Source: a virus. Taken from it: DNA of 64,000 nt. The position numbers were made by a program, and so were the translations under genes. The stretch covers positions 69,289 through 133,288 of IMG/VR virus record IMGVR_UViG_3300029564_000003; one strand, 5' to 3'. Positions within the stretch are counted from its first letter, which is position 1, and each line of letters opens with the position of its first letter. A model generated the notes under the pieces. It was not told where the DNA came from. It did not search any database and saw only the letters and a list, made by a program, of their open reading frames with translations. This document shows positions 2,114 through 22,522 of the stretch, piece after piece.

Positions 2114-2138
2114 ACTTCACACCCACCGTATGTTTTTA

Positions 2139-3720: not shown

Positions 3721-4173
3721 TTATTTCTCGTAACCCGCATCCAAGGTAATGCCAGCCTCATCGACACCAAGCCACGCATATCTCATGACAAGTGACTCAT
3801 TCTCAGCGACATACGCCTTTCGCATAGCCATGAGCTTGTCGAGCATGTTCGCAGATGAATACGCCTTGAAATCAGTCGAACCCATCGACGCTTTAAGCAA
3901 CGATGGCGTCCTAATGTATGTTGAATCGACGTATTCTACAAGCATATAATTGGCGATGATATCCATCTCGATTTCGGACAGCTCGCAATTAAAGCGCTGG
4001 ATGATATCATCCCTGTTGTTCAGGTCTTTTCTGCAAACATGAAACTTCGCTAGGGCTGGAACCAAGTAGTCATGCAGCATATCCTTGACATCCTCTTCGG
4101 ACATCCTCGGGATATCCCAGTCACGAAATTTAGTAAGCACCCTGTCATACAGGTTTTCGTATGTAGTGTACAT
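3721..4173 (-). CDS. hypothetical head-tail connector/adaptor-like protein
   Basis: 150-aa ORF downstream of the capsid gene, position typical of head completion proteins. Confidence 0.35.
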   Translation of the reverse strand: MYTTYENLYDRVLTKFRDWDIPRMSEEDVKDMLHDYLVPALAKFHVCRKDLNNRDDIIQRFNCELSEIEMDIIANYMLVEYVDSTYIRTPSLLKASMGSTDFKAYSSANMLDKLMAMRKAYVAENESLVMRYAWLGVDEAGITLDAGYEK

Positions 4174-4201
4174 GTATACTCACCAACCCTACGATAAAGT
4201 A

Positions 4202-4762: not shown

Positions 4763-4841
4763 ATTCCTACCACCTTTCTTAGACTAAATTCAAAACAGAG
4801 CGGGCGTGTTATGCAACACACCCGCGAAATCAATCAAAAGA

Positions 4842-5870: not shown

Positions 5871-5891
5871 AAATAATCTCCTCCTTTTCCA

Positions 5892-6425
5892 TTAAGCTAC
5901 GACACGAAGCTCGAACAGCTCGTAAGTGTCGCCGTAGGTGTGAGCGGTAGTGACAAGCGTGGCACCAAGGGTGCGCTTGCGCATAATCTTGCAATAAGAA
6001 CCAGACTCGGGCTGCTCGGCCTGAGCCTTGAAGCGACCAGAAGCGTCGGCAACGGCATAAGCGCCAACCTTTACCTGCTCGGCAGAATCAGAGGTGAAGC
6101 CAGCCTTGGAGATGCCAAACTCGTCGTTGCGAGCGAGCACGCGGACGCGGAAAACGGTACCAGCGGGAATGACGAAAGCGTCGCGGCGCTGGTTCACGGA
6201 GCGGGAAGTATCGGCGTCCCAGACGGGCTGGTCGACGATAACATAGGTGTGGTCTGCGGGAACACCCTGCTTAAACTTATAAACATGTGACATGCCCTCG
6301 GCAAGCTCGCCAAGGCCGCCAATCATGCCATTCTCAATATCCTCGGTAGCAACGCAGTCAAAGATGCGCTCGGCACCGATGGTGGACTGCATGTTCGTGG
6401 ACTCGAACACAGTACGAATAGCCAT
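5892..6425 (-). CDS. putative head decoration / auxiliary capsid protein
   Basis: 177-aa ORF between the scaffold and capsid genes. Confidence 0.3.
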   Translation of the reverse strand: MAIRTVFESTNMQSTIGAERIFDCVATEDIENGMIGGLGELAEGMSHVYKFKQGVPADHTYVIVDQPVWDADTSRSVNQRRDAFVIPAGTVFRVRVLARNDEFGISKAGFTSDSAEQVKVGAYAVADASGRFKAQAEQPESGSYCKIMRKRTLGATLVTTAHTYGDTYELFELRVVA

Positions 6426-6484
6426 ATCTATTCCTCCTTAAATAAGGTAAAATCAAATTAAAATATATAGATAAACATAAAAGC

Positions 6485-7966
6485 TTATCGGTTGACCTTG
6501 ATATAGCCGTACTTCGTGTTCACGTAGCCGTCCATATCCTCGTGGTCGTCAATCACGCCGACAGTGGTATCACCATCATCGACCTTGCTGAACTGCGCCT
6601 TCGCGCGATTCTGCTTAACATAGAGGACTGCGCACTCCTTCTCGATTTCATCGACGGAAAGCTCGTCCTTCTTATCCTTGATTGCGGCAAAAGCCTCGTT
6701 CTCGCCAAGGGAATCCTCGTACTCACCGAGCTTAGCGTCCTTCTCGGCGTTCAGCTCATCAGCCTTGCGCTGCTCATCTGCGGCGAAAAGCTCCTCGTAC
6801 TTGGGCTTCATCTCGTCAAACTCGGCCTTCACAGCCTCAAACTCGGCCTCGACCTGCTCCTTGGCAGACTCGGCCTCAGCAATCTTCTCGACAGACTCGT
6901 TCACCTTCTCAGTGAACTTGTCCTCAATCTCAGAAATATGCTGACCGAAATCAAATGCACCCTCGGGCGCTGCGGTGCCATCCTCGTAATCAGAGTAAGT
7001 AACCTTCTTGCGCTTAGCGCACGCAAAGTCCAGCACTGGCTTGTCGCCCTCCATCGTAAACGGCACGCCGTAATAATGGTAGTTGTCTTTCGTGTCGACG
7101 ACAATCACCTCGTCGTCCTGCACGTCGGTAGCGTAGAAACGCGAAACCTCCATGCCCCAGAACTCATCGGTATACGTCTCATGCTCACGAACAATCAGAG
7201 CGATATCCTCGAACTGCTGCATGATGGTCTGTGAAAAATCATGGTTTGGCATATTCCCAACACCTCCTTGCACATCTTCTTCGTCTAACAGCTTTGTAAA
7301 AGCCGCAAACTTATCATTCAAATCACTACGGACGCTCTGTGCGAACTCATCCATAGAAAAATTAACCTCTTTAATTGCGACACCTGCATCAACCATGGCT
7401 GGTGTAACATCAGAACCGAGCAAACAAGCACCATCGAAAGAAAACGAGGTGAAGTGGAAGAGACCATCCGTCTCATCCTCGTATCCGTCAATCGAATCTG
7501 GATAAAGTTCCATCGACTCATGTTTCTCAGTGTCACGCTTCATGATTCCAGTTGCGTCAGAAAACTTTTCCCACATGAGGCCATCGACCTGAAGGAACTC
7601 GCGAACCTCGCCGTCCTCGCACTCACTTGACACCCATCTGGGGTTGCAACTCTCAGGGATTACCCCGAAACATTGCCCTTTATAATATCTCTCGTAACCG
7701 TTATCGGTCTTCTTGATATCGTACTCATGACCCTTGAAATCATCTTCGCCAGTATACTTGTCATGCTCGATGAACCCGAGTATCGGCGTATTGTAAATCG
7801 TATCGATGTACTTATCGACAACCTGCTTTGAGAAGTAGCTTCCATTGCGGTTGGCCCCCGTATGCATCAGATTGATTGTCACACGCAAGAATCGAGTGTC
7901 GTTATCGGACACCTCGCCATCGATTGAGTACGTCGCATGTAGAGGCTTGTTCTTATCGTAGGGCAT
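6485..7966 (-). CDS. putative prohead protease-scaffold fusion protein
   Basis: Strong GGAGGAG RBS before internal Met (MPYDKNKPLH); C-terminal ~150 aa is highly charged coiled-coil (KAEFDEMKPKYEELFAADEQRKADELNAEKDAK) typical of scaffolds; N-terminal globular domain; sits between portal and capsid. Confidence 0.4.
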   Translation of the reverse strand: MPYDKNKPLHATYSIDGEVSDNDTRFLRVTINLMHTGANRNGSYFSKQVVDKYIDTIYNTPILGFIEHDKYTGEDDFKGHEYDIKKTDNGYERYYKGQCFGVIPESCNPRWVSSECEDGEVREFLQVDGLMWEKFSDATGIMKRDTEKHESMELYPDSIDGYEDETDGLFHFTSFSFDGACLLGSDVTPAMVDAGVAIKEVNFSMDEFAQSVRSDLNDKFAAFTKLLDEEDVQGGVGNMPNHDFSQTIMQQFEDIALIVREHETYTDEFWGMEVSRFYATDVQDDEVIVVDTKDNYHYYGVPFTMEGDKPVLDFACAKRKKVTYSDYEDGTAAPEGAFDFGQHISEIEDKFTEKVNESVEKIAEAESAKEQVEAEFEAVKAEFDEMKPKYEELFAADEQRKADELNAEKDAKLGEYEDSLGENEAFAAIKDKKDELSVDEIEKECAVLYVKQNRAKAQFSKVDDGDTTVGVIDDHEDMDGYVNTKYGYIKVNR

Positions 7967-8167
7967 ATATCTCCTCCAAATATCAGAACAGGCACTTCTT
8001 GAGCGTTTCCTCATAAAGTTTTATATTCGCGTCAATCGTATCGTCATACTCGAACACATACTTGCCATTATGCATGGCAATCATCTTCGAACCGTTGTTC
8101 TTTAGAAACGAAGCAACCGATAAATCATTGACGATAAATTCTTTATTTTTCATATCAAACACCTCGG

Positions 8168-9703
8168 TTACATGTCGTTCTTACCAAGGTCTTTTGTTTC
8201 CTCACCTTCATCGGAAAGGGACTCGCCCTTGTCCTCTGCTGTAGGACGACCACCCTCAGACTCCTGAACTGCGGCTGATGCGTTATATGCCGATGTAAGA
8301 GGAACGAGCGTATTCACATAATCGAACACATTCTCGCTCAAGATGTTGTAACCGAACATCTCGGCGGGGGTGACGCCAGAAGCGGCAATCCACTTATCTT
8401 TAGCCAGACCCAATGCGGCATTTTCCTTAAGCTCTTTCATGACAGCAGTCTTGTTGAACACGGTCATGTCGTTGATGTAAAATTTAAATGTCGCCTTCGG
8501 CATATTGAGCTTGCGAAGCTTTATGAATCGATTGACCCATCGCTCGAACTGACGGTATACGCCATACACGATACCAGCGTCATTCTCGACTGAAAGTGTC
8601 ATAGAAGTGGCGGTTCCACCGCTGTTGAACAGCTCCTTGCTTGTTCCGCTCGCATTGTAAATCTCATCGACGGCATCGCCGACGTTATTGCGGGTGTTCG
8701 CAGAATCTTTGAAGCTAATCGCCTCACCCTTTGAGCCGAGGGTATGAATCATACCAATATCCTTCGACATGCTCTCTCTATTGAGGTTTGCAAATACGCT
8801 CAATACGTTAGGGGAGAGAAGAGGGGTGTCGACTTTACTCTCATCAATGGGAACCTCTACCAATATCGCCTTGTAATTGTCGGTTCGAGCAGATTGAAGC
8901 TTAAGTTTCTTATAGACATCCAAATCCAAAATATCGCGCACCAAACTTATGAGGATTGGGAACGGATACGTCCATTGGCTGTTCATCTTGATGCAAATCT
9001 GCTTATCGGCAGGTGGCAGATACCAGTTGGTCTGCGATTTGCCTTCTATGTAATCAACATAAGCATCTTGAATATATGATGGATACGCCTTAATCTCAGT
9101 AGCCTTGATGCTACCTAGGTTGATTCTAAAGTTATAGAGACCGTCTTGAATCTGATACAATTTGCATATATTGTAATCAATCTTCTGGAAGAAGAAATCC
9201 CCCAAATCATTCTCGACTACAAGGCCGCAATACACATCTTGATAGGGGAGGGTGCGCATGATTTTAGAAAACTCATGCTTGATATTCATCGCATCGAGCT
9301 TCATCGCAACCTTGCCATATCGTTCAGCAATCTTGTTGACATTCGGTTTGGCGAATGGGTTAGTTGAAATGCTGATTCCCCAATTAAACAACGCCATATT
9401 TGCATATAACGTATTAAGCCTATTGTAATGCGGGCTGATATGCATTAATATATTCGACGCTTGAACAAGTACGCGCCACATCGCGCTTGGATGCTCTAAC
9501 GCCTTCTCAACATCCTCAAGGCGAATATGTCCTATACAATGCGTCTCGATGATTTGGGAATTCGTTATTACATCTTTAAGCATCTGACGCTTAAATTCCG
9601 AGAAGTCTATCTTGCCTTCTTTAAAATCGTTTTCGAGCTTCTGCTCTGATTGGAGAACCGATACCATATCGGCGTCGTTCCCGAATTCTATGTTATCGGG
9701 CAT
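8168..9703 (-). CDS. putative portal protein
   Basis: ~511 aa, immediately downstream of the terminase large subunit; GGGAGGTG RBS before MPDNIEF start. Confidence 0.45.
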   Translation of the reverse strand: MPDNIEFGNDADMVSVLQSEQKLENDFKEGKIDFSEFKRQMLKDVITNSQIIETHCIGHIRLEDVEKALEHPSAMWRVLVQASNILMHISPHYNRLNTLYANMALFNWGISISTNPFAKPNVNKIAERYGKVAMKLDAMNIKHEFSKIMRTLPYQDVYCGLVVENDLGDFFFQKIDYNICKLYQIQDGLYNFRINLGSIKATEIKAYPSYIQDAYVDYIEGKSQTNWYLPPADKQICIKMNSQWTYPFPILISLVRDILDLDVYKKLKLQSARTDNYKAILVEVPIDESKVDTPLLSPNVLSVFANLNRESMSKDIGMIHTLGSKGEAISFKDSANTRNNVGDAVDEIYNASGTSKELFNSGGTATSMTLSVENDAGIVYGVYRQFERWVNRFIKLRKLNMPKATFKFYINDMTVFNKTAVMKELKENAALGLAKDKWIAASGVTPAEMFGYNILSENVFDYVNTLVPLTSAYNASAAVQESEGGRPTAEDKGESLSDEGEETKDLGKNDM

Positions 9704-9717
9704 AGATTCACCTCCCG

Positions 9718-11292
9718 TCAATACATGGTCGGAGCCTGATTGAGTTGCTTCATCTGCCTTGCATAATCTTCGATGTTGAACTCGTATTTCGGTTTACGTA
9801 GATACTCACGCTCAAGCTGACACTGAACCCAGTAATTGTACGCCAGCGAGCTGTATCGGTCTTTTCGCATACCTGTGCGCTCCTTGATTTTTACATTTGT
9901 ACCCTTGACCTCATATTCAAGTTTTGTCAACTCTGTTCGAAGTAGGGTGGTTTGGATGTATGGCATCCTATATCTAAGTTGCTCTGGTGCTTGCATCTTG
10001 GCAAAGCCCTTGAAGTTCTTGGCCAACACGTCTTCGGCTGCGACCTCATCGATGAGCAGGTTTATCTTGCCAGTCTTGAAGCCGCTGCGTAGCAGGATGC
10101 AGATATCATTGTTGAACGACGCGCTGCCCTTGATAGACCATATGACCTTCGGGGCATCTGAAACCTTGCAACGTGCAGCCATGTCCTTGTCATTGCAACA
10201 CGACAATGCCGAGTAAAGTTCTCCCGTCTCTGGGTCTACAATGTCTTGAACCAGCTTGTCAAAGACTGATAAACCGACGCCAGTACAATCGACGACCAAG
10301 TCGGTACATTTGTATACGTCGAACAACCTTCTGACTATGAGCGCTAAATCATCGGCGTTCAACCCCTCATGGTTTTCCATCCATACGATATTGGCGACAT
10401 AATTACCGCTTCTTGTGGGAGTTGCGCTGTTAATGATAATCGCGCTCGCGTCGTTGTTGTGTTTGCTAGACGCCATAAGAGCAACGTCGACAGACAAAAT
10501 CCTTCGCTCATTTTCTTTAAGCTCTGGAATGGCATATGTCTTGTTCTTCATGACATATGGAGGATACATAGGATTCTTCAATCGTCTCCTGTCAGTGATG
10601 TCATCGAACGAAAAGAACGTGCCATCTTCATCCCCGTAGAACAGCGAATCCATTTCCATATACCACTTGACCTCGTCAAACGTCGTTTCCGATATTTCGT
10701 CTTCAACGGCGTGTATATCAAGCAAGTTCTCCAATATCGAAATCTGATAGGGGAGACTGCATATGAAATATTTCTTTTTATCATCAAGCATCTTGACGGT
10801 GTAGTCCTTGACCTTATCGAAAAGCCAGTGGTCTTTGTAAAACGCAGAACTCATATAGATTTCCTTGTTACGCTCCGTCAAATGCTTGTATTTAGGATTA
10901 TTGAGATACCTTGGCTGGCGCGGAGCGGTCAGGAATTTCTTAAGAACCGTGTTAATCACGTCGAGCTTTACCAGACGACACTCATCGACGATAAGTATGT
11001 TGGCTCTCTTACCTCGCGCGAAATCCGAAGCGGTCGCAGTCTTGATATACGAACCGTTCCTAAACACAATCCTACTGTCATTCTGACCAATCTTGCATTC
11101 AGATATCTCGGCCTTGAGATTCTCAGAACCCCAGCCGTATGATTTCATGAAGATATTTTCTATTTTCTCAAGCACCTCGTTCGCCTGTTTCAGCGTACCA
11201 GATACTACCACGATTTGAGTGTGTGGGTAGAGGATGCACCTGATTGTGGCGAAGAGGGCGGTGAGAAAGGTTTTCAGTATGTTATTACCCAT
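9718..11292 (-). CDS. terL: terminase large subunit, exon 2 (ATPase C-terminal part + nuclease domain)
   Basis: Contains Walker B-like ILIVDECRL and the overall TerL layout; the in-frame stretch opens only ~4 codons upstream of MGNNIL; the N-terminal P-loop part is encoded separately at 12291..12527. Confidence 0.65.
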   Translation of the reverse strand: MGNNILKTFLTALFATIRCILYPHTQIVVVSGTLKQANEVLEKIENIFMKSYGWGSENLKAEISECKIGQNDSRIVFRNGSYIKTATASDFARGKRANILIVDECRLVKLDVINTVLKKFLTAPRQPRYLNNPKYKHLTERNKEIYMSSAFYKDHWLFDKVKDYTVKMLDDKKKYFICSLPYQISILENLLDIHAVEDEISETTFDEVKWYMEMDSLFYGDEDGTFFSFDDITDRRRLKNPMYPPYVMKNKTYAIPELKENERRILSVDVALMASSKHNNDASAIIINSATPTRSGNYVANIVWMENHEGLNADDLALIVRRLFDVYKCTDLVVDCTGVGLSVFDKLVQDIVDPETGELYSALSCCNDKDMAARCKVSDAPKVIWSIKGSASFNNDICILLRSGFKTGKINLLIDEVAAEDVLAKNFKGFAKMQAPEQLRYRMPYIQTTLLRTELTKLEYEVKGTNVKIKERTGMRKDRYSSLAYNYWVQCQLEREYLRKPKYEFNIEDYARQMKQLNQAPTMY

Positions 11293-12290
11293 GAGCTTTT
11301 TATCTCATGCTCTGGGGCTTTCGCCCATTTTCATCGACTTGTCATTTCAAGCCCAGCTTGGCGTACATTTTCGTTCGTTATTGAACGTCGGACACTCTTG
11401 CCAAGATTATATTTATTCACTTGGTACGCTCTACGGTGTCAACCAGCCTTTCGCAATCTGGTTGATTACCTCGGTATTGACATATAATTTTATTACTTAG
11501 CTTTTACCGATTTTATCCGATTTTATCAGGGCAATTTTATTTTATAAATTTCTATTTATATGCAAATCTTTATTGTTATCAACATAATCGAACTTTTCTT
11601 TTTTACGAGACAAACATATACAGTCGTCTGTGTAGATATATTTCTTAAATTTTTCTATATTATCTACACCATAAATATATATGCTACAAGCATTGCTTCT
11701 TTTATCCTTTCTTGGTTCGCCCACTTTAATTCCGTTATTTATCAATATGTCTCTAACAGAAATCAAAAAGTTTTCGTTGCCACAAAAAGAACAAGAATAA
11801 CTGTGCATTCTATATTTTTTGCCTCGTTCACTATGATAATAGTCGCCTTCTGTGTATGAAACGCATCCATCACCATCAAAATATCCACGTATAAAATCTC
11901 TGATATATTGTTCTGGAACAATATCATACGTTGGGAACTCCAATGTTAAACTTTTGCATGGCGTGCATCCGAGATTAATTAAATCTCTACACATCTTCGT
12001 GTAATTAATAACAATTCGATTTGCATTGTATTTACCTGCAATTTTCCTATCCTGTATAGGAACATTGCTTTCAAGCGAGTCTCTGAACTTGATTAGGTGG
12101 TCTATATCTTGACTTTGAAGCGTTATCTCTAACGACATAGACCTCAGTTCTTCGCCTTTATAGTATCTGGTAATACATCCATCTGCATATAAAAACCCAA
12201 GCCAATATGCTTTATCAGATGAATCAATTTTCTTGAAATAATCCTTATTGTAAGTATACTTACTCATTTGTTATTCCAATCGTTCGCGGC
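11293..12290 (-). mobile_element. intron (probably group I) interrupting terL, carrying a LAGLIDADG homing endonuclease gene
   Basis: ~1 kb AT-rich insertion between the two terL coding segments; exon 1 ends ...AARGQGKL then stop, and exon 2 resumes at about 11292; contains a free-standing HEG with its own start codon. Confidence 0.6.
11542..12267 (-). CDS. LAGLIDADG homing endonuclease (double-motif)
   Basis: Two LAGLIDADG motifs: LGFLYADGC and IRGYFDGDGCV; AT-rich codon usage unlike the flanking genes. Confidence 0.8.
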   Translation of the reverse strand: MSKYTYNKDYFKKIDSSDKAYWLGFLYADGCITRYYKGEELRSMSLEITLQSQDIDHLIKFRDSLESNVPIQDRKIAGKYNANRIVINYTKMCRDLINLGCTPCKSLTLEFPTYDIVPEQYIRDFIRGYFDGDGCVSYTEGDYYHSERGKKYRMHSYSCSFCGNENFLISVRDILINNGIKVGEPRKDKRSNACSIYIYGVDNIEKFKKYIYTDDCICLSRKKEKFDYVDNNKDLHINRNL

Positions 12291-12527
12291 TTATAATTTA
12301 CCCTGTCCGCGCGCAGCGATGTAAGTCACATAATAATTGTGCATCATCGCGTACAATAATATCTTCTGAAATAACTTCAATTCGACGTTCAGATAATCCT
12401 TTGCGAACCTGTGCGGATTGCACCTGTAAAAACCAGCCCATGCCGCAATACCGTCCATAATCCGTTTCGACTTTTCGTTTGCGACTTCCTTATCTGACAA
12501 CTTATGCGTGGAATTCATAGACATCAT
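12291..12527 (-). CDS. terL: terminase large subunit, exon 1 (N-terminal P-loop segment)
   Basis: [37 protein letters not shown] = TerL N-terminus ending in the Walker A motif; a stop follows directly. Confidence 0.6.
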
Positions 12528-13588
12528 TCCATCCCGTCGTCTTCAAAGTGGTATTCTGGTATATCTTCTTCAAGATTGGTCTTGCCGAACACCGCCTCAA
12601 ACATAGATTCATCATCATCATCTTCAACGTATTCTGGTTTAGACGCGGTATATTTAGACATGAACTTATCATACAGGTTTGAGAATGCGTTCTTGATATT
12701 TACCATCTTCGCAAGATGTCCTCTAAAGAACACATCTATGTAAAGTCCGATTTTATCGACATCTCTTAAATCTTCCTCTGGCTCTGGGATTGGTCGTGTT
12801 CGCTCCCACTTATCTATAAGCGTACCCATTGTCTGATTTTCCGCCGTAGTGTCGCCGACATTCTGCTTAGGCTGCAATTTTGCAGCATCCATGAGTTTTA
12901 GATATTGCTCATTCAATTGCTTGATGTCGCCGATGTTGCCAGATGTCTCGGCCTTCAACTGCTGCAATTGAATCTTGCACAGCTGCTTGAACGTCTCCTC
13001 TTGCGCCATGGTGTTGCACTCATGACGGGCAGTCCATTCCATATATTTATCATATAAAAACACATAATCGTCTCGCGCAAAACCATTGCCGAACATCTTA
13101 ACACCCTCGCGAATGCGCACATCTTTCTCGACATCATCGTCATCATATATAGACATTGTCTTGCCAGCATCGACAGATTCCTTGAACTTATCTTTCAATG
13201 TATCGTCATATGAGCGCTGTATATATGTCTTAAGTCTAGTGCGTTGCATATAATACGACATAACCGAATGGCTACCATCGTTCTCCCAGCTCTTTATTGC
13301 TGATTGAACAAGCTTGTCACTATAATACACATCGAACATCATGCACATTCTCTCAATTGCCTTATGCTCTGGATTCGTCTTGTCTTCACTGACATACTTG
13401 TCATAATAATAATCATACATGTCATCTAGGCAATCTTGACATATTGGCAGTCTTGCATGGTTCTTGAAGAACTCGCTTCTCGTACTGTAATATTTCTTCG
13501 AATCTATCTTCTCACCGCATCGTATGCAGGTTAGTTTTGCGGGGGAGTCAAGGGTTTTGCTGCGGCTCGCATTATTAGCTATAGCCAT
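12524..13588 (-). CDS. hypothetical protein with N-terminal zinc ribbon; possible terminase small subunit
   Basis: 354-aa ORF immediately upstream of terL; CIRCGEKI...CQDC zinc-ribbon; acidic C-terminus; the call is positional only. Confidence 0.3.
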
Positions 13589-13615
13589 TCACATTCCCCA
13601 TTTCCTTCTTAGCGT

Positions 13616-13654
13616 ATATAAAAAAGGGGAGAGTCTACTGGTAGACCCTCCCCA
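13616..13654 (-). terminator. rho-independent terminator (minus strand)
   Basis: Stem GGGGAG(A)GTCTAC/GTAGAC(C)CTCCCC followed by T-run on minus strand (A-run on plus). Confidence 0.5.
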
Positions 13655-13697
13655 GTCCTGTGCGGACTTTATTATATTAATTCAATTATTAATTCAA

Positions 13698-14930
13698 TTA
13701 GAACTTGACATCATAAACGCAGTCAAGCCCGTCATTCCCGAACACGGCGATTACCTGCTCGGGCCGATTGCGCAGTCGCTTGTCCATGCAGAAGTTATCA
13801 GACCCCGAGAGACATCCGCTGGTAATCACCTTGGTATCGTACTCGGTGTGCATGGCATTGGTGTGGCGATGCGCCATAAAGATTGTTGAAGGGCGATAGT
13901 CGAGCATCATGGTAATCTTCGACACCACGCTCTTCGGGTCGTCCTTATCGCCATGTACGGCGACGACATTCGACCCACGAACGCTGAACACAGCCATCGA
14001 CTCCTCGATGTCGTTCACATGGAACACGATGTCGTTCTCGTTCTGAAGCTTCGCGCCAATATAAGGAATAATAAGATGGTCAAAGTTCTCCGCCTTCGCA
14101 AGTTCATTCTTGTTAGCGACAACGCGGGAGTGGTTGCCCGGAGTCACATATACATGCACCGTATCGACCATATCGCAAAGCTCGTAGAGGAAATCTGCGA
14201 TTAGGTCTGCCGCAGTGAGAAACTGCTCGATTACGTTCTGGTTGGACTCGATACGCAGTGGCGTATGAATGAGTCCGCTGATAATCTCAGAAATTATCAC
14301 ATGGGCGTTCTCAACGTTATGGCGCTCGGACACCTCGCAAATCTTGTCAAGGTACTTCCCAAGCCTATCCTTTAGAACATCTTCATCGAACTTATTCCAA
14401 GAGTTATCGATGACAATACCAGTATGCAGGTCGGTCAGAGTGACTACGATATCGGTATCCCCATGAAGATAGACCTTGTCCTTGTGTCCGATTCTGCGCT
14501 CGACATTATCGACAACGGCTCGCTTGACCTGCTCTACGAAACTTTCCTTGCGGGCTTGCTCGCGGAGCAGTCGCTTAAGCTCGTTGCGCTCATCACGCAA
14601 CTTGACCTTTTCCTTCTCAAGCTCGTGGCGTTGTGCCACAATCTCGGAGGACTCGTCGATTTCTCCAAATACACCAGCGTCGTGAAAACGCTTTGCCTGT
14701 TGATACGGTTTGCGGTAGGCACTTGCCGTAAATGGCATATCGCCCATATCCAACTCCTTGTTAAGGATGTCGGCGACCTCATTCCAGCTCATGTCGAGAA
14801 GACCAGAATCCTTTGCCTGACACAAACGCCAGATGAATTGCTCGTCATTCTCAAACTCTTCCTTTTTCAAATTCATAACTTCACACACCCGTCTTAGCTT
14901 GAAACGGCTCAATGGGTCAGATGCCCGCAC
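13698..14930 (-). CDS. calcineurin-like metallophosphoesterase with N-terminal coiled-coil
   Basis: Ordered motifs DxH (TDLHTG), GD, GNHS, and GHxH-like (AHRHTNAMH) of the metallophosphatase fold. Confidence 0.55.
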   Translation of the reverse strand: MRASDPLSRFKLRRVCEVMNLKKEEFENDEQFIWRLCQAKDSGLLDMSWNEVADILNKELDMGDMPFTASAYRKPYQQAKRFHDAGVFGEIDESSEIVAQRHELEKEKVKLRDERNELKRLLREQARKESFVEQVKRAVVDNVERRIGHKDKVYLHGDTDIVVTLTDLHTGIVIDNSWNKFDEDVLKDRLGKYLDKICEVSERHNVENAHVIISEIISGLIHTPLRIESNQNVIEQFLTAADLIADFLYELCDMVDTVHVYVTPGNHSRVVANKNELAKAENFDHLIIPYIGAKLQNENDIVFHVNDIEESMAVFSVRGSNVVAVHGDKDDPKSVVSKITMMLDYRPSTIFMAHRHTNAMHTEYDTKVITSGCLSGSDNFCMDKRLRNRPEQVIAVFGNDGLDCVYDVKF

Positions 14931-15300
14931 AAAGCGAGCCTCTTTCGAGTCTTTTGTTTGTATAGCACCGAATGTTTTGGACTAAACTAACCCGACCCAT
15001 CGACTTACTAACCACCACAATGGATGGCAAAACAACCCTGATGGGTTGACATATGCGGATATTGCCCCATCCGCGAATATGCTGTAACATTCATCTATCC
15101 ATACACGGGGTGGTGCCGCAACAGTTCCAAGATATAGAACAATCGCGGCACCTAGCTAAGAAAGGTGTAGGAATATGAATGATTCCCGACGGGATAAGAC
15201 ACCCGTCTATGACGCGAAATGAATCGCGCCTGTAAATGCCGCAACCCGCTTACGCGGGTCACGAAAGTATCATAATCCGCAAATGCGGGTTACTTCATGT

Positions 15301-15642
15301 TTACTCATCGCCATCTGCGCCAGCCTTGAACAATTTCCCGCAATAATGTCGGGTGATGTTCGCCTTGGCTTTAATCTTGGCGATAGTTGTAATTGTCTTG
15401 CCAGTCAAGTTGTTGACCTGCGTCTGCTCTGGGATATACTGCGAGTCAATAGTGATTCCCTCGAACAAACGAATCGATATATCAGACTTCTCATCAGCGC
15501 TAGACAGAGCCTTGAAAATCTCTTCCTCGATTGCGTTGTATACATCCTCGACAACAGACTTCCTGATTCTGGCAGACCGAGCCGCCATCTTTATGATTTG
15601 AGCCTTGGTATAGACGGTCTTCGGCTTATCATTGTTTTCCAT
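15301..15642 (-). CDS. HU/IHF-like histone-like DNA-binding protein
   Basis: 113 aa; N-terminal KAQIIKMAARSARI...VEDVYNAIEEEIFKAL and the beta-arm region match the HU/IHF family pattern. Confidence 0.7.
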   Translation of the reverse strand: MENNDKPKTVYTKAQIIKMAARSARIRKSVVEDVYNAIEEEIFKALSSADEKSDISIRLFEGITIDSQYIPEQTQVNNLTGKTITTIAKIKAKANITRHYCGKLFKAGADGDE

Positions 15643-15827
15643 TCAATCATCCTTTCCGTAAAGACCGACATGAAATCTCGGTTCAAACCTTTATTTCAAT
15701 AGAGGCTTCCATATATTGAGATTTCAAAAATCAACATATGACCTAGATTTCATGTTGTTTGTTCATTTTGGCAAAAGTTGCATATAACCTTAATTATATG
15801 CTGTTTATGTATTTTAGAGGGTAGGGT

Positions 15828-18788
15828 CTACACAGCGTTTTCCTCTCGTTTACGCTGTCGATATCTCTGCATCTTCAAACGCTTTAACTCTCTCTTATGT
15901 TCCTTCTGACACTCCTCGCAACGCTCGGTTGCAGAGTCGTACACGCTAACCTCGAACCACTCACCGCAATCAACGCACTGAACAGCCTTGGTTTGCGGAT
16001 TGAGCTTGTCAGACAGATTCTCGTAGATTACATCACCGTAGCACAACCACAGGGCTGTTTTGTTAGCAGACTTCTTGATTCCGTATAAGAACTTCACCAA
16101 GATGTCGACGACCTCTTGCTCGGTATATCCGAACTTAGACAATGCATCTCGAATCTTATCGGCGATGCGCTGATTCTTCATCTGGGTGCGCATATAACGC
16201 TCGCTCTTATCGGCCTTGCTAGATGACATCGCAGCATCGACGTTGAGATAATAAGCCTTATCGAACTTGCAATACTCGACGATGAGCGGGTCGGTTTCCT
16301 CCTCGATGATTCTTCCGTTGGATGTGAACGCGACATCGAACTCGATATTGGGGTCGTGCATCAACATCGCACAGTCTATTTTGCCGATTCCGAGTTTCCG
16401 CGTGTTGATTCTCGGATTCGGGATGACGGCCTCAAGCTTGTTGACGAAGCTGAGATTCGCATCTACGATTTGAGAATCTGTCTTGTCCTTCGCGTACTTG
16501 AAGAAGTGGGGGAGTGGTTGCCCTGTGAAGGCCGTCAGCTTCTTGTTCATATCCTTCGGACGCTCTGGTTTATAGAGGGTTTTTGCGTAATCGATAACGT
16601 AGTTGTTTTCCATACAAAGAATCTTGATTAGCTCGACAGCCTCCTTTTGCTCCTCAAGTGTTCCGTCGACAAACACGTCGCTGTTCCAAATCTTAGAGAT
16701 GTTGTTGCTGTAGATGCCGATGTTGCCACCGACGAACGCCGCATTCAATCCAGCGTATATCGCCTTGTTGTCGAGATGAACAGGGGATGCCTTCTTCATA
16801 TCGTAGTAAAGCGGGACGATATCGAACTTCTCGATGTTGCGCTTTGCCACGTCGATGATGGTCTTATCGGCCACCATGAGCAATTTGTCACCGTCGCAGT
16901 CAAATTGAAGCACCCTAGAAATAAGGTCTTTGCAGCTCGTATAAACAGCATCGGTACAATACCAGTTCCTCAGCTTATCACGACGCTCTTCATCGACACC
17001 GCGAGCGGCGACGTTCTTCCTTATCGCATGTTCCAAAAATAAGTGAGGAGACCTCAGACAATCAAGCTCATCGTTCTTCCTGAACAGCCAACAGAACACC
17101 TCGCCGTCATCGAGCAGCCCATTTGGATTGTCTGTACCCATGAACCAGTGTTCGCAAGCGGCATAGAAATCTGGGACTACGAATGTATACTTACCATGGA
17201 TATCGAGCTTTCCAGCCTTGCACCGCTTGATGATACTGTCCTTGATTCTCCTGATATGAGACTTCGTGTACTCGTCATTGATAAGCTCGGGGTATAACTC
17301 GATGCACTTCTGAAATGACGTCTTGCTCTTATTGTATGGCGTGATATCGAACATCGACTTCACGTTTCGAATAGATGAGCACATGTTCTCAAGCTTGTAC
17401 ACGGACTGTCGTGCTATCGAGGCAATCTCATCATCGGCGATATCGGTGAGCGACTGCAACATCTGGTAGTTGATGGTCGCGTCCTTTATCCGCTCTTCCT
17501 CCTCGTTTGTGAATCCTGCGGTGCATCCGTTGTCGTGGTACTTCTCCTTGTAATCATCCCAAGAGTCATAGAAACCCGAGAGCTTGAACTGACTCTTCGT
17601 GAATATCACCTGAATATCCTCATCGATTACGTCATGTTCCTCGCCGTAGATGTCCTTGATGATTGGCGAGCACCCATTTTCACGTATGAACTCGTCGAAA
17701 GGGAACGCGCACAGCAATCCCTTAATCCAAGGTATGCGCACCATCTTGTTGTTCTGCAAGATGCCGAACGCATTTGGCAGCATCATACCAGCTCCATCGG
17801 TATGCTCAATCTCACGATGGCCGCACTCTCGCGTCACGCTGTAATCGACATCGCTGACGAAGTCATAAGTTCCATATACCTCGGTCGCGAAGTCATCGAT
17901 GACGATGCACTTGTCGATATCAAACTCTTCCCACACATCGGTGGCAGAATTCGATAAGGCGTTGTAGGCGAGATACTTGTTCGGATTTATTCCACCCTTT
18001 GCATTGATATCATCGAGTGTCAAACCGCACATGATTGACTTCTCGCATCTGCGCCACACGGACTCCTTGACGAACACGCACTTCTTCGTTCGAATCTGAC
18101 CAGCGGAAGAGGTGAAGTAGATATACCTCTCACCCTTGTAGGTGAATCCGTTGAAAATCAAATCCTTGAGGACGTCGAAGTAGAACACCCGCACAATCAT
18201 GAAGTCATCGGTGAATTCGTCAATCTCCGCACCGATAGTCCTCGTGAAATACGAATCGAACACGGCGATTACGTCATCCTCGGACACAGTCGACTCGTCA
18301 AGCTTCCTGATGTGATGATGCCGGTTCGATGAATCGTTCGCCTCGACCTTGTTCGACAGGAGGGATAATAGCTTCTGCTTGACCTCGTTCGCCTTCTTAG
18401 TCTTCATATCCGCCAAGCTCTTGTAGTATGCGTAATCCACGGCGATGTCATTTACCGTGTCTGCATCGTCCCCGTGTATCGAGAAATCATACTCACCAGA
18501 CATCATGAGCTTGATATCCGACACGTCCACTCCGAACTCCGCCAGCTGAGACTCAAGCTGTCTGGTGCCAGTTATCGTTCTCTTGACACCGTTGGCGTTC
18601 ACTATGAACCCGCCGTTGACCAGCCTGTTGCGCTCAGCCCTCAGCTTGTGGTTGAGCATGTGGAGTCGGCGCTCGCGCTTGCTGTAGAAATTCGAGGTAT
18701 CTACATTGAGTATCTTCACCTGCTTATCTAGCGCCAATAAGAACACATCCTTCCATTTCCGAAACCTTTCTTTCCCCGTTTGAAACAA
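15828..18788 (-). CDS. large protein with DxDGD metal-binding motif and C-terminal zinc ribbon; candidate non-canonical single-subunit (two-barrel/YonO-like) RNA polymerase
   Basis: 986 aa; motif QFDCDGDKLLMV resembles the universal DxDGD catalytic loop of multisubunit-type RNAPs; C-terminal CVDCGEW...CEECQ zinc ribbon; first gene of the late-strand unit next to the divergent control region; the family assignment is inference. Confidence 0.35.
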   Translation of the reverse strand: MFQTGKERFRKWKDVFLLALDKQVKILNVDTSNFYSKRERRLHMLNHKLRAERNRLVNGGFIVNANGVKRTITGTRQLESQLAEFGVDVSDIKLMMSGEYDFSIHGDDADTVNDIAVDYAYYKSLADMKTKKANEVKQKLLSLLSNKVEANDSSNRHHHIRKLDESTVSEDDVIAVFDSYFTRTIGAEIDEFTDDFMIVRVFYFDVLKDLIFNGFTYKGERYIYFTSSAGQIRTKKCVFVKESVWRRCEKSIMCGLTLDDINAKGGINPNKYLAYNALSNSATDVWEEFDIDKCIVIDDFATEVYGTYDFVSDVDYSVTRECGHREIEHTDGAGMMLPNAFGILQNNKMVRIPWIKGLLCAFPFDEFIRENGCSPIIKDIYGEEHDVIDEDIQVIFTKSQFKLSGFYDSWDDYKEKYHDNGCTAGFTNEEEERIKDATINYQMLQSLTDIADDEIASIARQSVYKLENMCSSIRNVKSMFDITPYNKSKTSFQKCIELYPELINDEYTKSHIRRIKDSIIKRCKAGKLDIHGKYTFVVPDFYAACEHWFMGTDNPNGLLDDGEVFCWLFRKNDELDCLRSPHLFLEHAIRKNVAARGVDEERRDKLRNWYCTDAVYTSCKDLISRVLQFDCDGDKLLMVADKTIIDVAKRNIEKFDIVPLYYDMKKASPVHLDNKAIYAGLNAAFVGGNIGIYSNNISKIWNSDVFVDGTLEEQKEAVELIKILCMENNYVIDYAKTLYKPERPKDMNKKLTAFTGQPLPHFFKYAKDKTDSQIVDANLSFVNKLEAVIPNPRINTRKLGIGKIDCAMLMHDPNIEFDVAFTSNGRIIEEETDPLIVEYCKFDKAYYLNVDAAMSSSKADKSERYMRTQMKNQRIADKIRDALSKFGYTEQEVVDILVKFLYGIKKSANKTALWLCYGDVIYENLSDKLNPQTKAVQCVDCGEWFEVSVYDSATERCEECQKEHKRELKRLKMQRYRQRKREENAV

Positions 18789-19202
18789 TATTTGTTTTTA
18801 TATGTTTTCACTTTGTTTATCAACAAAAAACATTGTTTATAAACAAAAGCATCATAAAAACAAATACATTTTACAATTATAGCATATATATTCGCCAGTT
18901 AAAACCATCATCTATCACATCCATGGAAATAACATCGACATTCAACATGGCTAATAATACACATGCTTAATCGCGCACGTTGATATCCGTATACCCAGTT
19001 ATCAAAGTTTTATACGGTCGTATCTCTTCTTCACGAAATCTACATATAGCAACAACTAAAAGCAGTCACTTTGAAACTCGCGCCAAACTGATGGCGTAGT
19101 CTCGCCTTCGGCTCGCTACGCAGATGGGAGATAATCATACGGCCATTGGTTATAGCATACATCTATTGATTATACGATTGCAACCGTGATATCATCTTCG
19201 TC

Positions 19203-19270
19203 AAAACTTGTCACTTTGATTTCCTCGTTATAATATATATATAACGGTTTTTTCAAAGTGACAAGTTTTG
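19203..19270. repeat. 68-bp perfect palindrome, copy 1 (18-bp arms CAAAACTTGTCACTTTGA, centre CGTTATAATATATATATAACGG)
   Basis: Read directly from the sequence; identical second copy 191 bp downstream. Confidence 0.9.
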
Positions 19271-19393
19271 GAGTTGTATAATTTTGTGTTCATTCCATGA
19301 AGATGTTATATGAGTGTATAAAGTTTTAAGTTGTGGGTATAGAACCAACGACGACCAGAGATGTTTCATCGACGGTCGTTTTTAAGGAAATTT

Positions 19394-19461
19394 AAAACTT
19401 GTCACTTTGATTTCCTCGTTATAATATATATATAACGGTTTTTTCAAAGTGACAAGTTTTG
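19394..19461. repeat. 68-bp perfect palindrome, copy 2
   Basis: Identical to 19203..19270. Confidence 0.9.
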
Positions 19462-19490
19462 CTTGTATAACGATAAGGAGCCTTTGTCTT

Positions 19491-19646
19491 ATGCTGAATA
19501 ACATAAAGAATTATATGCGTTACGCCCTAAGAGATGAAATATCTCATTTTTACAGAGAATCAGTTCCTTACGTAGAATCATCTCTCATCCCCGAGGCGGA
19601 GCGCAGCGGAGACCTCGGCATCAGTTTAGCGCTAATTTCAAAGTGA
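19491..19646 (+). CDS. hypothetical small protein (51 aa)
   Basis: AAGGAG RBS 10 nt upstream of the ATG; lies between the palindromes and the iterons. Confidence 0.25.
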   Translation: MLNNIKNYMRYALRDEISHFYRESVPYVESSLIPEAERSGDLGISLALISK

Positions 19647-19770
19647 CAAGTTTGGCAACTTGAAGTGACAAATTCTTATGAATTTGAAGTGACAAACTTT
19701 TACAAGTTTGAAGTGACAAGTTTAACAACTTAAACAATAAGTTTGGCAACTTAAACAACCAAACACGTAA
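19636..19770. repeat. iteron array: 4-5 direct repeats of GAAGTGACAA(G/A)TT at ~24-bp spacing, plus GTTTGGCAACTT x2
   Basis: Seen in sequence; shares the GTGACAA core with the palindrome arms and with a single site at ~19063. Confidence 0.85.
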
Positions 19771-20736: not shown

Positions 20737-20805
20737 ATGATGTTATAAAACGACTATGGTCGTAAGACAGCTATGACAATCAGATAATACAATTGGATAT
20801 TTTTT

Positions 20806-20837
20806 GAGGGCGTCTCTTCGGAGGCGTCCTTTTTTTC
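20806..20837 (+). terminator. rho-independent terminator
   Basis: GGGCGTCTC-UUCG-GAGGCGTCC hairpin (two G-U pairs) followed by TTTTTTT. Confidence 0.6.
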
Positions 20838-21462
20838 GACGTTTTTATAAGCGCCTTTTTTTATTTGCATCTTTAAAAGACAAACAAACTTAAATACAGG
20901 GTTTATAAGCACGTCGTCTATGAAACACCCCTATGGAACGTCGATTTCAGACGGTGTGATTGTGTGACAAAACCGCTGGTAGATAGGCGTTTTTATTACT
21001 TGGTATGGGTGCGGTAATTCGTGTTTCAAGTATGAAGTTTTTATGCAGGGTATGTGTAGGAGTCTTGTTTCCGCTGGTAGACGGCTGATTACAGGGGTAG
21101 GCGAAGGTCTATTTTTGGCTGATTTTCAGTCGATTTTCAAGGCTGTTTTTGAGGTTCTCTCTAGGGCGTTTAGAGGTTCGCAAACGACAAGGGTGTTTTG
21201 GGTTCGGGTGTGATTTTGGGTTGCTGTTTGATGTGTTGCAAACGACAGGGGTGAGGGTGTGGATTTGGTGTTTTGGGTTCGGGATTTTGTGGCGTGTGTG
21301 TGGGGTGTATACGGGTTTGGTTTCAGGTTGTTTTTTGGGTCGGGGTGTGTGGGTGAAGCCCGTGGGGGGGCTGGGGCGATTCCCTAGTCGTTTACTAGGT
21401 TTAAACATGCCCCGTCCGGCACTTCGCGCCGTGCTTGTTCAAAAGTCACCGTGAGCTTTTGG

Positions 21463-21502
21463 GGATGAAAAAACGTGAGGTACCGAACATGTTTTTTCCT
21501 AC
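21463..21502. terminator. bidirectional-looking hairpin AAAAAACGTG...CATGTTTTTT
   Basis: 10-bp stem with A-run 5' and T-run 3'. Confidence 0.35.
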
Positions 21503-22495
21503 TACTTGCATAATAAAACAACCCCCTCTGTATAGTAACGCGCCGCGTTATTATATGAAACCGATTGTTAGTATATATAGTTAGAAGTTTGTCTAACAAT
21601 AGTAACGCAACGCGATACTATGCAACCCAAACCCAAACCCAAACCTTAAACCTATACTTGAACGTTAAACATAACGCCCCAAACACAACGCCTACAATCT
21701 GCCAAACCCAACTAACATATACCCCTCTGAGGGCCTCAGATGCCCCAAAAACGCCCGTTCAGTTTTCCACCTACACTTACCCCCGCCAACTGGTTATCGC
21801 CCCGTATACACGTTTCCGCAGGTAGAACCCTATATTTAGGTACCCGAACTATCGTCACTGGTATGCTGGTACGTACCAGTTGCAACACGATAGCGTACAC
21901 GTGTACGTTAAACGACACTTCGACCCGTTCTGTCGTCGATCTTATCGTGTGCTTATTTTATGTTTTCAACGTTCGACCCCTTGCATATACCTACGCTATC
22001 CGCTATATACGCGTCGCGTATGCAATATGCACGTCTAACGCGTATCCTATGCAGTCGATCGACCGCGTTTACCTGCTATTATACCGTTTACGCGCTATAT
22101 CGCCCTATTCTATGCATATCAACGCGTATACGACACCATTCTATGCAAGTACCTAAACTATGCCGTTTACCTGCGGTTTCACTAAACCATCATATATAGC
22201 ACCACTGTTTACCTGCTGTTTTGTTCAATTAAAATAGTTATTGCAATACATACCGCACCATGCGATATTGGTTTTGCCGCAAGGGGGCACGCCCCGAACG
22301 GCCGCCCGCTACGGGATGCGACCCGCGTAGCGCGTACTTTGAGAACCGAATATCGAGTTTATGAAGACTTTATGAAGACGCTAAAACGGTGCTAACATAG
22401 GGCTTGCCCCACGGGGCGGGAACCTTGATAAGAGCATACGTGGTAGGGCGCGGGGACGGGGACTGAACTGCGCCGCTACCGTGAGCGGCACTTAT

Positions 22496-22522
22496 GTTTC
22501 ACGTGAAACAGTTCACAAACAG
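22496..22522 (+). promoter_or_regulatory. operator-like element: perfect 14-bp palindrome GTTTCACGTGAAAC + AGTTCACAAACAG
   Basis: Seen in sequence; near-identical copy at 22927..22953. Confidence 0.6.

Follow-up and report, generated by a model that had tools for sequence, protein, structure and literature searches.

A YonO-family RNA polymerase gene and a candidate late-promoter region in a metagenomic phage

YonO-type enzymes are the smallest known kin of the cellular RNA polymerases and serve as models for the ancestral transcription machine. To our knowledge, only one member has been characterised, the YonO protein of the Bacillus phage SPbeta. This is a strictly DNA-dependent RNA polymerase that is required for plaque formation and for 37 late genes, whose transcription begins at a single start site downstream of yonN, at position 2225998 of the B. 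subtilis 168 chromosome (Forrest et al. 2017; PMC5467207). The sequence of the YonO promoter was left open in the same paper. Two-barrel polymerases of the same Pfam family (PF05183) are found in eukaryotes, where QDE-1 and RDR2 copy RNA in gene silencing, whereas YonO, the characterised phage member, uses DNA.

Here we describe a YonO relative encoded in a 64,000-nucleotide stretch of viral DNA (IMG/VR record IMGVR_UViG_3300029564_000003, positions 69,289 to 133,288), referred to below as the window. A preliminary description had proposed that the gene encodes a phage non-canonical two-barrel RNA polymerase of the YonO, crAss-like or QDE-1 type. Profile matches, direct homology, the presence of a second barrel and the predicted fold all support this proposal, and the gene product is a clear relative of YonO, so that the enzyme type is one already known. 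Very probably, this YonO-family two-barrel polymerase is itself transcribed by the host enzyme and reads the downstream late genes from the gap between an HU-like and a YonJ-like gene. The features on which this account draws are collected in Table 1.

Table 1. Features of the polymerase locus, in window coordinates
Feature	Position	Strand	Basis
Divergent control region: at least 9 copies of a ~16-nt motif AAACTTGTCACTTTGA, including two identical 68-nt palindromic units	19052..19755	.	Direct-repeat and inverted-repeat search
TGcTATAAT, extended -10-like; candidate host-type promoter of the polymerase gene, ~140 nt upstream of its probable start	18876..18884	-	Consensus match only
YonO-family single-subunit two-barrel RNA polymerase gene	15828..18788 (maximal ORF, 986 aa); probable CDS 15828-18737 (969 aa, TTG start)	-	YonO homology, PF05183, phrog_8308, AlphaFold model
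Beta-like (second) barrel residues: D331 in HTDGAG; R351 and K356 in MVRIPWIKG	17721..17798	-	Invariant in A3 and A6
R579-S-P581 (LRSPHL), universal Arg-x-Pro of the beta-prime-like barrel	17046..17054	-	Invariant in A3 and A6
Catalytic Asp triad D630-x-D632-G-D634 (FDCDGD), beta-prime-like barrel	16887..16901	-	Invariant in A3 and A6
C-terminal four-Cys zinc ribbon (C938, C941, C957, C960)	15909..15977	-	Invariant in A3
HU-like DNA-binding protein gene, positional equivalent of SPbeta yonN	15301..15642	-	PF00216, 25.0 bits (cut-off 22.4); phrog_379
Conserved block A TTCATATTCCTACACCTTTCTTAGCT, candidate late-promoter or leader element in the HU-YonJ gap	15154..15179	-	Alignment A2
Hairpin starting 6 nt after block A, predicted in late-strand RNA	15112..15152	-	Per-sequence folding
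YonJ-like exonuclease gene, first of the presumed polymerase-dependent late unit	13698..14930	-	phrog_284, E 2e-57
YonG-like gene	12524..13588	-	PHROGs matches for the YonG-terminase-portal genes (phrog_3314, phrog_15503, phrog_2, phrog_2739)
Split terminase gene, after the YonG-like gene	12291-12527 and 9718-11292	-	PHROGs
Portal gene, after the YonG-like gene and terminase	8168-9721	-	PHROGs

The polymerase gene and its family

A tblastn search of phage records identified the yonO gene of SPBc2 (39.5% identity, 86% coverage, E 2e-170) and a homologue in Clostridium phage D-1873 (CLG_B2308; 43.8% identity). The profile search that the preliminary description had recommended gave a single Pfam match above the curated score cut-off, to PF05183 (RdRP), with 30.8 bits against a gathering threshold of 23.8 (E 1.6e-7), extending over residues 201-767 of the protein and positions 52-560 of the 582 in the profile. 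In the PHROGs collection, phrog_8308 matches with an E value of 6.5e-231. No curated NCBIfam model matches the protein, HMMER searches of PDB sequences, whether started from the protein alone or from a profile of 57 sequences, gave no homologue (RDR and QDE-1 included), and 10-30 kb of window DNA had no megablast match among phage records. Homologues number in the thousands, the closest being found on phage-like contigs of 110-167 kb from animal-gut Clostridia; identities are 54-59% for contigs from genome collections and 60-79% for full-length metagenomic proteins. Prophages of Mediterraneibacter and Lientehia carry relatives of about 50% identity. One relative (P0130), 96% identical to SPbeta YonO, is labelled 'DNA-directed RNA polymerase YonO' by NCBI.

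The gene had been described as encoding 986 amino acids. The open reading frame is indeed uninterrupted over that length when counted from the first in-frame TTG, but a TTG at 18737 (residue 18) is probably the true start, making a product of 969 residues likelier. This start is preferred because relatives start there, because a Shine-Dalgarno sequence (GGAAGGA) lies 10 nt upstream and because residues 1-19 of the longer product have pLDDT values below 50 in the AlphaFold model. The N-termini of relatives fall at residue 18, where the window protein would read MALDKQV and P0017 reads MALDKQI, and the called TTG start of P0004 aligns with the TTG at 18737. In several relatives, insertions that contain LAGLIDADG are present just ahead of FDxDGD and close to IDYAKTL, positions at which the window gene is uninterrupted.

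Four-way and 57-way alignments are colinear from an N-terminal DTSxFY motif to the C-terminal zinc ribbon. The larger of these (A3) comprises 57 family sequences of 40-79% identity; a further alignment (A6) adds phage homologues of 23-24% identity, from PMBT24 and TR-TP1. Two-barrel polymerases have eight invariant residues, as listed for QDE-1 and RNA polymerase II (Rpb1/Rpb2) (PMC2919709); the window protein keeps all of them, and they are likewise invariant in A3 and in A6. The DxDGD motif that had been picked out beforehand (LQFDCDGDKLLMV) is real and lies within SRVLQFDCDGDKLLMVA (residues 624-640); in YonO, changing the three equivalent aspartates to asparagine abolished RNA synthesis (PMC5467207). 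The second barrel is likewise present, with its invariant aspartate and Arg/Lys pair. Matched by spacing and alignment rather than by superposed coordinates, R579 and P581 have counterparts in R962/P964 of QDE-1 and R446/P448 of Rpb1 (PMC2919709), and the spacing of 5 between R351 and K356 equals that of QDE-1 R738/K743. The preceding Asp-to-Arg spacing is 20 in the window protein and 29 in PMBT24, the latter as in QDE-1 (D709/R738).

The C-terminal zinc ribbon (CVDC...CEEC), also noted previously, is found in SPbeta YonO as CCICG...CQSCG and is missing from the PMBT24 and TR-TP1 homologues in A6. Neither the Asp triad nor the four-Cys motif is a chance match, since all seven residues are invariant across 57 sequences of 40-79% identity.

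The AlphaFold2 model (pLDDT 87.4, pTM 0.81) places beta strands at residues 301-361. When it was compared with the PDB using Foldseek, as the preliminary description had suggested, 11 significant matches were obtained, all of them to RDR2 or QDE-1 (E 1e-14 to 3e-9), and its structural matches as a whole are to two-barrel polymerases only: RDR2, QDE-1, the Thermus phage gp62 and gp96 proteins and the crAss phage polymerase. Two double-psi beta-barrels are predicted in one polypeptide of ~100-110 kDa, without further domains of the multisubunit enzymes; its sole Pfam match above cut-off is PF05183.

Gene order and the role of the enzyme

The division of the window into minus-strand genes, running from 18788 down to 426, and plus-strand genes, starting at 19789, is as first described, with ~1 kb of repeat-rich intergenic DNA between the two. 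The neighbouring HU-like gene was also correctly recognised, scoring above the PF00216 cut-off (Table 1), and in SPbeta, D-1873, Perkons and about 34 of the loci compared, too, the polymerase gene is followed immediately by an HU gene. The order polymerase, HU-like, YonJ-like, YonG-like, terminase, portal is that of SPbeta and is repeated in metagenomic relatives, which carry the Pfam domains YonJ_N, and YonG_N with YonG_C, at the corresponding genes. A strong terminator-like hairpin is located 3' of the YonJ-like gene (13626-13653). Searches of Rfam, at gathering thresholds over the whole window and at E <= 1 over 11100-15900, returned two tRNAs only; the HU-YonJ gap matched none of the known RNA families, and the terminase insert none of the group I intron models.

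How might such an enzyme work? By homology to YonO, the barrel at residues ~300-360 would supply D331, R351 and K356, and that at ~575-640 would supply R579, P581 and the Mg-binding triad D630/D632/D634, the two together forming one active site in which RNA is made on a DNA template. The host polymerase would read the gene itself early or midway through infection, using a sigmaA-type promoter beside the operator-rich divergent region; in relatives, TTGACA-17-TAnnnT is found at the position aligned with the extended -10-like element of the window. From a promoter of its own, within the 370 nt that separate the HU-like from the YonJ-like gene, the enzyme would then transcribe the same-strand structural and packaging genes that lie further downstream (YonJ-like, YonG-like, terminase, portal and others). 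For the window phage, the template specificity and the range of genes transcribed are taken from a protein 39.5% identical to it, the one characterised enzyme. The polymerase gene does stand first on the late strand, as had been stated, but is probably host-transcribed and would in that case lie outside the unit that its product transcribes.

A further argument, that a phage polymerase would explain a lack of obvious sigma70 promoters in the late arm, finds no support. A consensus scan of positions 1-15300 gave 38 promoter-like sites compared with 28.3 +/- 5.3 in shuffled sequences, leaving no depletion to be explained; sigma70-like consensus matches in the late arm say little for or against promoters there.

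An active two-barrel polymerase could have another job, making a specific non-coding RNA or replication primers or serving no more than a small portion of the late arm. An unannotated non-coding RNA follows the YonO start site in SPbeta, and YonO-like genes are also found in bacterial chromosomes, where their role is unknown (PMC5467207). The highly structured HU-YonJ gap and the terminator-like hairpin after the YonJ-like gene fit such a job too, yet we consider it very improbable, given that SPbeta-type synteny with packaging and structural genes is kept across many relatives and that DnaB-like and Toprim-like replication proteins are already encoded in the early arm (where ORF 58593-59675 has a weak Toprim_4 match).

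It is very improbable that the enzyme is RNA-dependent, copying or amplifying RNA rather than transcribing phage DNA. The only Pfam match is to a family named 'RdRP' and 'RNA-dependent RNA polymerase' is the annotation given to the homologues in phages Perkons, PMBT24 and TR-TP1, but these labels are inherited from the Pfam name. Whilst the best structural matches are to the eukaryotic RNA-dependent enzymes RDR2 and QDE-1, the window protein is only 12-16% identical to these, as against 39.5% to YonO, the sole characterised bacterial or phage member, which strongly prefers DNA templates and drives late-gene transcription (PMC5467207). The conserved place of the gene at the head of the structural-gene strand also fits a transcriptase. 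As to the remaining suggestion, that of a Toprim-type primase or other metal-dependent nucleic-acid enzyme resembling DxDGD by chance, acidic DxD motifs do occur in Toprim and other Mg-dependent enzymes, but its probability is negligible and we reject it: there is no Toprim or primase match in Pfam (E <= 1), PHROGs or NCBIfam, the significant fold matches are all to two-barrel polymerases with no primase fold among them, and the motif aligns with the experimentally tested YonO triad.

A conserved block and hairpin in the HU-YonJ gap

The HU-YonJ gap, where the YonO-family polymerase would have its promoter, contains a conserved element, block A, whose 16-mer is unique within the window. Variants of block A are present at the same place in 11 related loci. 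The exact 16-mer has 74 matches in IMG/VR, most of them unrelated to this type of phage; four lie between HU and YonJ, in a YonO-HU-YonJ context. Read in reverse complement, block A matches the phage's typical Shine-Dalgarno sequence followed by ATG, with the variable spacing of a Shine-Dalgarno. A small antisense gene was considered and rejected: the opposite-strand ORFs are of 6-38 amino acids only and share just MN(E/A)KK. A second block (block B), adjoining the YonJ start, is kept in the closest sub-clade only.

Block A is followed by a predicted RNA hairpin. Each sequence was folded on both strands, RNAalifold having given no consensus because MAFFT misaligned hairpins of differing length. 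The hairpin was found in 11 of 11 loci with stem sequences that differ, and in every one the late strand gave the more stable fold; G-U pairs in the predicted folds number 33 for the late strand and 6 for the opposite strand.

Block A and the hairpin are common to a close clade of relatives. In more distant YonO clades no block A was detected 3' of the polymerase gene, and a relaxed scan for motif plus hairpin in these clades gave 18 matches on the sense strand and 23 on the control strand. In SPbeta, a motif like block A (ATATCTACTCCCTTCTTTTCT) occurs within the 194 bp enclosed by the primers of the published P_YonO primer extension, a placement in that interval rather than at the start site itself; scanning SPbeta DNA against genome contigs to place the published start site gave no match.

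Tentatively, and with more doubt than confidence, we suggest that TTCAT-N5-9-ACCTTTCT together with a co-varying, late-strand-specific RNA hairpin 5-8 nt later may constitute the recognition and start region of a YonO-type late promoter. Block A and the hairpin (15112-15179) might then mark the start site, with the hairpin perhaps serving as a stabilising 5' structure on the transcript. Were this true, it would be the first sequence definition of a promoter for YonO-type polymerases. The practical value of the locus is modest: it offers a short, conserved intergenic candidate for the missing promoter.

Comparison with known systems

Other phage two-barrel enzymes are more distant. The gp62-type non-virion enzymes of Thermus phages P74-26 and P23-45, the tape-measure-fused gp96 of P23-45 and the virion enzyme of crAss-like phi14:2 (6VR4) have no similarity to the window protein detectable by HMMER. 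These minimal enzymes (Thermus, crAss-like phi14:2) also differ in size, being either of 592 amino acids or fused in giant virion proteins of 2166 to ~5000, and were not found with SPbeta-type gene order. The window protein is not a crAss-like virion RNA polymerase of the phi14:2 gp66 type, a giant protein of more than 2000 amino acids packaged in the virion. It has the eight catalytic residues in common with eukaryotic QDE-1 and RDR2, with matching spacing, but at 12-16% identity (structural alignments) it does not belong with these silencing polymerases by close sequence relationship, and the zinc ribbon and N-terminal helical region are not shared with them.

SPbeta YonO (NP_046615; Forrest et al. 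2017, PMC5467207) is colinear with the window protein over its full length. The motifs SSAGQIRTKK, HTDGxG, RxPWxKG, RSPHLxxEH, QFDxDGDK and IDxAKTL and the C-terminal CxxC...CxxC are common to the two, and the genes have the same neighbours (HU-like, YonJ, YonG, terminase and portal) and the same place beside a divergent regulatory region. The window protein is ~130 amino acids longer (969-986 compared with 839), owing to insertions at residues ~57-107, 716-725 and 830-843 and a longer C-terminal tail, whereas the HU-like gene stands closer to the first late gene, at 370 nt compared with 1.7 kb in SPbeta. The probable host, a gut bacterium of the Clostridia or Lachnospiraceae, differs from the Bacillus host of SPbeta.

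Among the homologues from Clostridia phages and prophages, D-1873 included, and from ruminant-gut MAG contigs of 110-167 kb, the members of the close clade have proteins of ~960-970 amino acids with the same insertions and the same synteny. Annotations of such genes as 'hypothetical' or 'RdRP' should be changed to 'YonO-like DNA-directed RNA polymerase'. The window adds to the YonO type a member that is well preserved and uninterrupted and that comes from a large clade of phages of gut Clostridia, ~110-170 kb in size, and suggests that the SPbeta strategy of using a phage's own polymerase for its late genes is widespread beyond Bacillus.

Identity of the polymerase

The preliminary description had proposed, from raw sequence, a phage-encoded two-barrel RNA polymerase at the head of the late arm, and this is correct. 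Its account of the locus is accurate, since the uninterrupted ORF, the DxDGD-type motif (residues 624–640 read ...SRVLQFDCDGDKLLMVA...), the C-terminal zinc ribbon (CVDC...CEEC; C938, C941, C957 and C960), the HU-like neighbour and a run of minus-strand genes extending from the polymerase, beside the divergent region, to position 426 were all confirmed. The protein is probably 969 amino acids long, starting at TTG 18737, rather than the 986 of the maximal ORF, because the N-termini of close relatives read M(A)L(D/N/S)(K/S)Q(V/I), the TTG called as the start of the database homologue P0004 aligns with TTG 18737 (giving MALDKQV), GGAAGGA lies 10 nt upstream of this codon and model residues 1–19 have pLDDT values below 50.

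The single above-threshold Pfam match is PF05183 'RdRP' (30.8 bits vs a cut-off of 23.8, residues 201–767), and the PHROGs match is phrog_8308 (E 6.5e-231), annotated 'unknown function'. A tblastn search of 50,697 phage records matched 40, headed by Clostridium phage D-1873 (43.8% identity) and followed by all the SPbeta-group Bacillus phages (39–40% identity over 85–88% of the query), including SPBc2 yonO (39.5%, E 2e-170); in the Goe phages the homologue is annotated 'yonO: DNA-directed RNA polymerase'. The family is very large: at E ≤ 1e-5 the polymerase of the window matches more than 3,250 database proteins, and YonO more than 4,600. The nearest relatives in genome collections (54–59% identity) lie on contigs of 110–167 kb that were binned with Lachnospiraceae or Clostridia and come from the guts of buffalo, yak, deer and other animals; clear prophage copies (~50%) occur in Mediterraneibacter and Lientehia isolates and more distant copies in Paenibacillus, Bacillus and others. 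The enzyme type is already known, by prediction since 2003 and by experiment since 2017, and databases already contain homologues from phages of gut Clostridia, most of them entered as 'hypothetical' or 'RdRP'.

Alignment with YonO, D-1873 and Psychrobacillus phage Perkons, or with 56 database homologues, is colinear from an N-terminal DTSxFY to the zinc ribbon. Every two-barrel polymerase shares eight invariant residues, which in QDE-1 are D709, R738, K743, R962, P964, D1007, D1009 and D1011 (Ruprich-Robert and Thuriaux, PMC2919709). Their equivalents here, with matched spacing, are D331 (HTDGAG), R351 and K356 (MVRIPWIKG), R579 and P581 (LRSPHL) and D630/D632/D634; none of the eight varies in the 57-sequence alignment, and all are also kept against the 23–24% identical polymerases of Enterocloster phage PMBT24 and Thomasclavelia phage TR-TP1, the Asp-to-Arg distance being 29 in both PMBT24 and QDE-1.

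An AlphaFold2 model built on the 57-sequence alignment (mean pLDDT 87.4, pTM 0.81) has beta-rich segments at 300–361 and 528–639 and a terminal zinc-ribbon hairpin; the second, lysine-containing barrel whose absence would have told against a polymerase is present, with basic residues. Foldseek returned 11 significant PDB matches, all to the two-barrel polymerases RDR2 or QDE-1 (E 1.2e-14 to 2.7e-9, ~850 aligned columns), with no other PDB entry below E = 3; the BFVD matches were phage proteins labelled RNA-dependent RNA polymerase. HMMER searches of PDB sequences, with the single protein and with a family profile, matched none; the PDB appears to hold no deposited YonO structure. By homology, the two barrels would form one Mg-dependent active site making RNA on a DNA template. 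Several annotations label such proteins as RNA-dependent. That label derives from the Pfam name, not from data, and is at odds with biochemical work on YonO (Forrest et al. 2017, PMC5467207), a strict DNA-dependent RNA polymerase. The Toprim-like primase offered earlier as an alternative is rejected on the Pfam and structure searches; a weak Toprim-like ORF lies elsewhere in the window.

Gene order and neighbouring elements

Genes and sequence elements of the window
Feature	Position	Strand	Remarks
Polymerase	15828..18788	-	uninterrupted ORF, 986 aa from first in-frame TTG
HU-like gene	15301-15642	-	next after polymerase; PF00216, 25.0 bits vs cut-off 22.4
Block A, TTCATATTCCTACACCTTTCTTAGCT	15154-15179	-	conserved; in 370-nt gap between HU-like and YonJ-like genes
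Hairpin	15112-15152	-	begins 6 nt after block A
Block B, GATGGGTCGGGTTAGTTTAG...GGTGCTATACAAACAAAAG	14940-15010	-	just upstream of YonJ-like start; common only to closest relatives (L004-L007)
YonJ-like exonuclease		-	after HU-like gene; phrog_284
Terminator-like hairpin	13626-13653	-	between YonJ-like and YonG-like genes; 12 bp, 7 GC pairs, then TTTTTT
YonG-like gene		-	after YonJ-like gene; phrog_3314
Terminase large subunit	exon 1 12291-12527; exon 2 9718-11292	-	adjoining parts of phrog_15503
Portal		-	after terminase; phrog_2739
Divergent-region repeats	19052-19755	both	at least 9 copies of ~16-nt motif AAACTTGTCACTTTGA
SPFH/Band 7 protein	44829-45827	+	early arm
Class-V aminotransferase	49435-50619	+	early arm
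RNA ligase	50705-51889	+	early arm
FolD-type methylene-THF dehydrogenase/cyclohydrolase	52295-53212	+	early arm

The order from polymerase to portal recurs in metagenomic contigs with 67–70% identical polymerases, which match Pfam YonJ_N, YonG_N and YonG_C, and in many of 80 loci from bacterial genomes and MAGs. The terminase gene (9718–12527, minus strand) is split by a ~1 kb insert with a LAGLIDADG homing-endonuclease ORF (11542–12267), a layout shared by related loci L004, L006 and L007; no Rfam group I or II intron model matched this insert.

The polymerase gene is intact in the window and interrupted in several relatives (L103, 1351–5750; L094; L122; L035, L083 and L086; SPbeta-like phages). 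One break follows ...SRILQ (residues ~628–631) and immediately precedes the catalytic FDxDGD; another is near the conserved IDYAKTL (~733–745). The ORF at the breaks is of LAGLIDADG type, or GIY-YIG in Bacillus phages, and mobile elements seem to target the gene's most conserved motifs. A 167 kb MAG contig (JAFTFU010000002.1; L013 and L023) carries the same polymerase locus twice, 109 kb apart, which points to a ~109 kb phage genome assembled as a concatemer or in circularly permuted form.

Transcription control and the HU–YonJ gap

Judged from its upstream sequence, the polymerase gene is itself probably transcribed by the host enzyme: TGcTATAAT is found ~140 nt before the start, and at the aligned position relatives have TTGACA-17-TAnnnT. 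The supposed lack of sigma70 promoters in the late arm found no support, a scan giving 38 matches vs 28.3 ± 5.3 expected. Plus-strand genes start at 19789, ~1 kb of intergenic DNA separating the two arms, and the AAACTTGTCACTTTGA copies fill the divergent region from the polymerase gene to the first of them. They include two identical 68-nt palindromic units (19203–19270 and 19394–19461) and probably form an array of operators for the phage repressor.

As in SPbeta, the polymerase would then have a promoter of its own downstream of the HU-like gene and initiate there. Block A and its hairpin recur in 11 related loci, 56–126 nt past the HU stop. Stem sequences vary between loci, the late-strand stem is the more stable in all 11 (by 2–11 kcal/mol) and, of the G-U pairs in the predicted folds, 33 are on the late strand and 6 on the opposite one. 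Four further IMG/VR loci also have the exact block A 16-mer in the HU–YonJ gap, and in SPbeta ATATCTACTCCCTTCTTTTCT falls within the 194-bp interval between the published P_YonO primer-extension primers, the interval to which the SPbeta start site was placed. More distant clades gave no match to the motif. As a late-promoter element the arrangement is suggestive but unproven; that it defines YonO-type promoters is unlikely.

Reverse-complemented, block A also gives the phage's usual Shine-Dalgarno plus ATG, with SD-like, variable spacing; its plus strand reads as a textbook AAGAAAGGTG-N7-ATGAAT, kept in the 11 loci. The ORFs opening there are of 6–38 amino acids and unrelated, sharing only MN(E/A)KK. 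The plus-strand reading may be a translated mini-ORF, the late RNA may carry an anti-SD-like sequence, or the likeness may be the coincidence of a pyrimidine-rich promoter.

The hairpin after the YonJ-like gene, which resembles a strong intrinsic terminator, lies inside the presumed polymerase-dependent late unit. A narrower role for the polymerase, such as transcribing a unit that stops there or a specific non-coding RNA, is an unlikely alternative.

The early arm and comparison with SPbeta

An ORF-poor stretch of ~1.7 kb (20750–22500) has strong strand asymmetry, its GT-rich repeats TTTTGGGTTCGGG... (21190–21350) and CA-rich AACCCAAACCCAAACC (21620–21650) forming an imperfect inverted repeat with several other short repeats nearby. 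Gene-free gaps occur in relatives at a comparable position (L004, 1957–4143), and the stretch could be a putative replication origin or non-coding RNA region. Further along the early arm (44651–61540, plus strand) are three tRNAs (Leu-TAA, Ile-TAT, Arg-TCT) and replication/recombination genes (AAA_24, DnaB-like, weak Toprim, PD-(D/E)XK). Aminotransferase and FolD together make an unusual metabolic cargo.

YonO is a single chain of ~100 kDa that forms stable elongation complexes, is killed by changing its Asp triad to Asn and is required for plaque formation; 37 late genes need it, in one operon starting upstream of yonK and downstream of yonN (PMC5467207). SPbeta YonO likewise has a zinc ribbon, as CCICG...CQSCG, and the SPbeta order yonO-yonN-...-yonJ-...-yonG-yonF-yonE is reproduced by the minus-strand genes of the window. 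Beyond SPbeta, the window adds only clade-specific insertions (residues ~57–107, 716–725 and 830–843) and a compact, conserved HU–YonJ leader.
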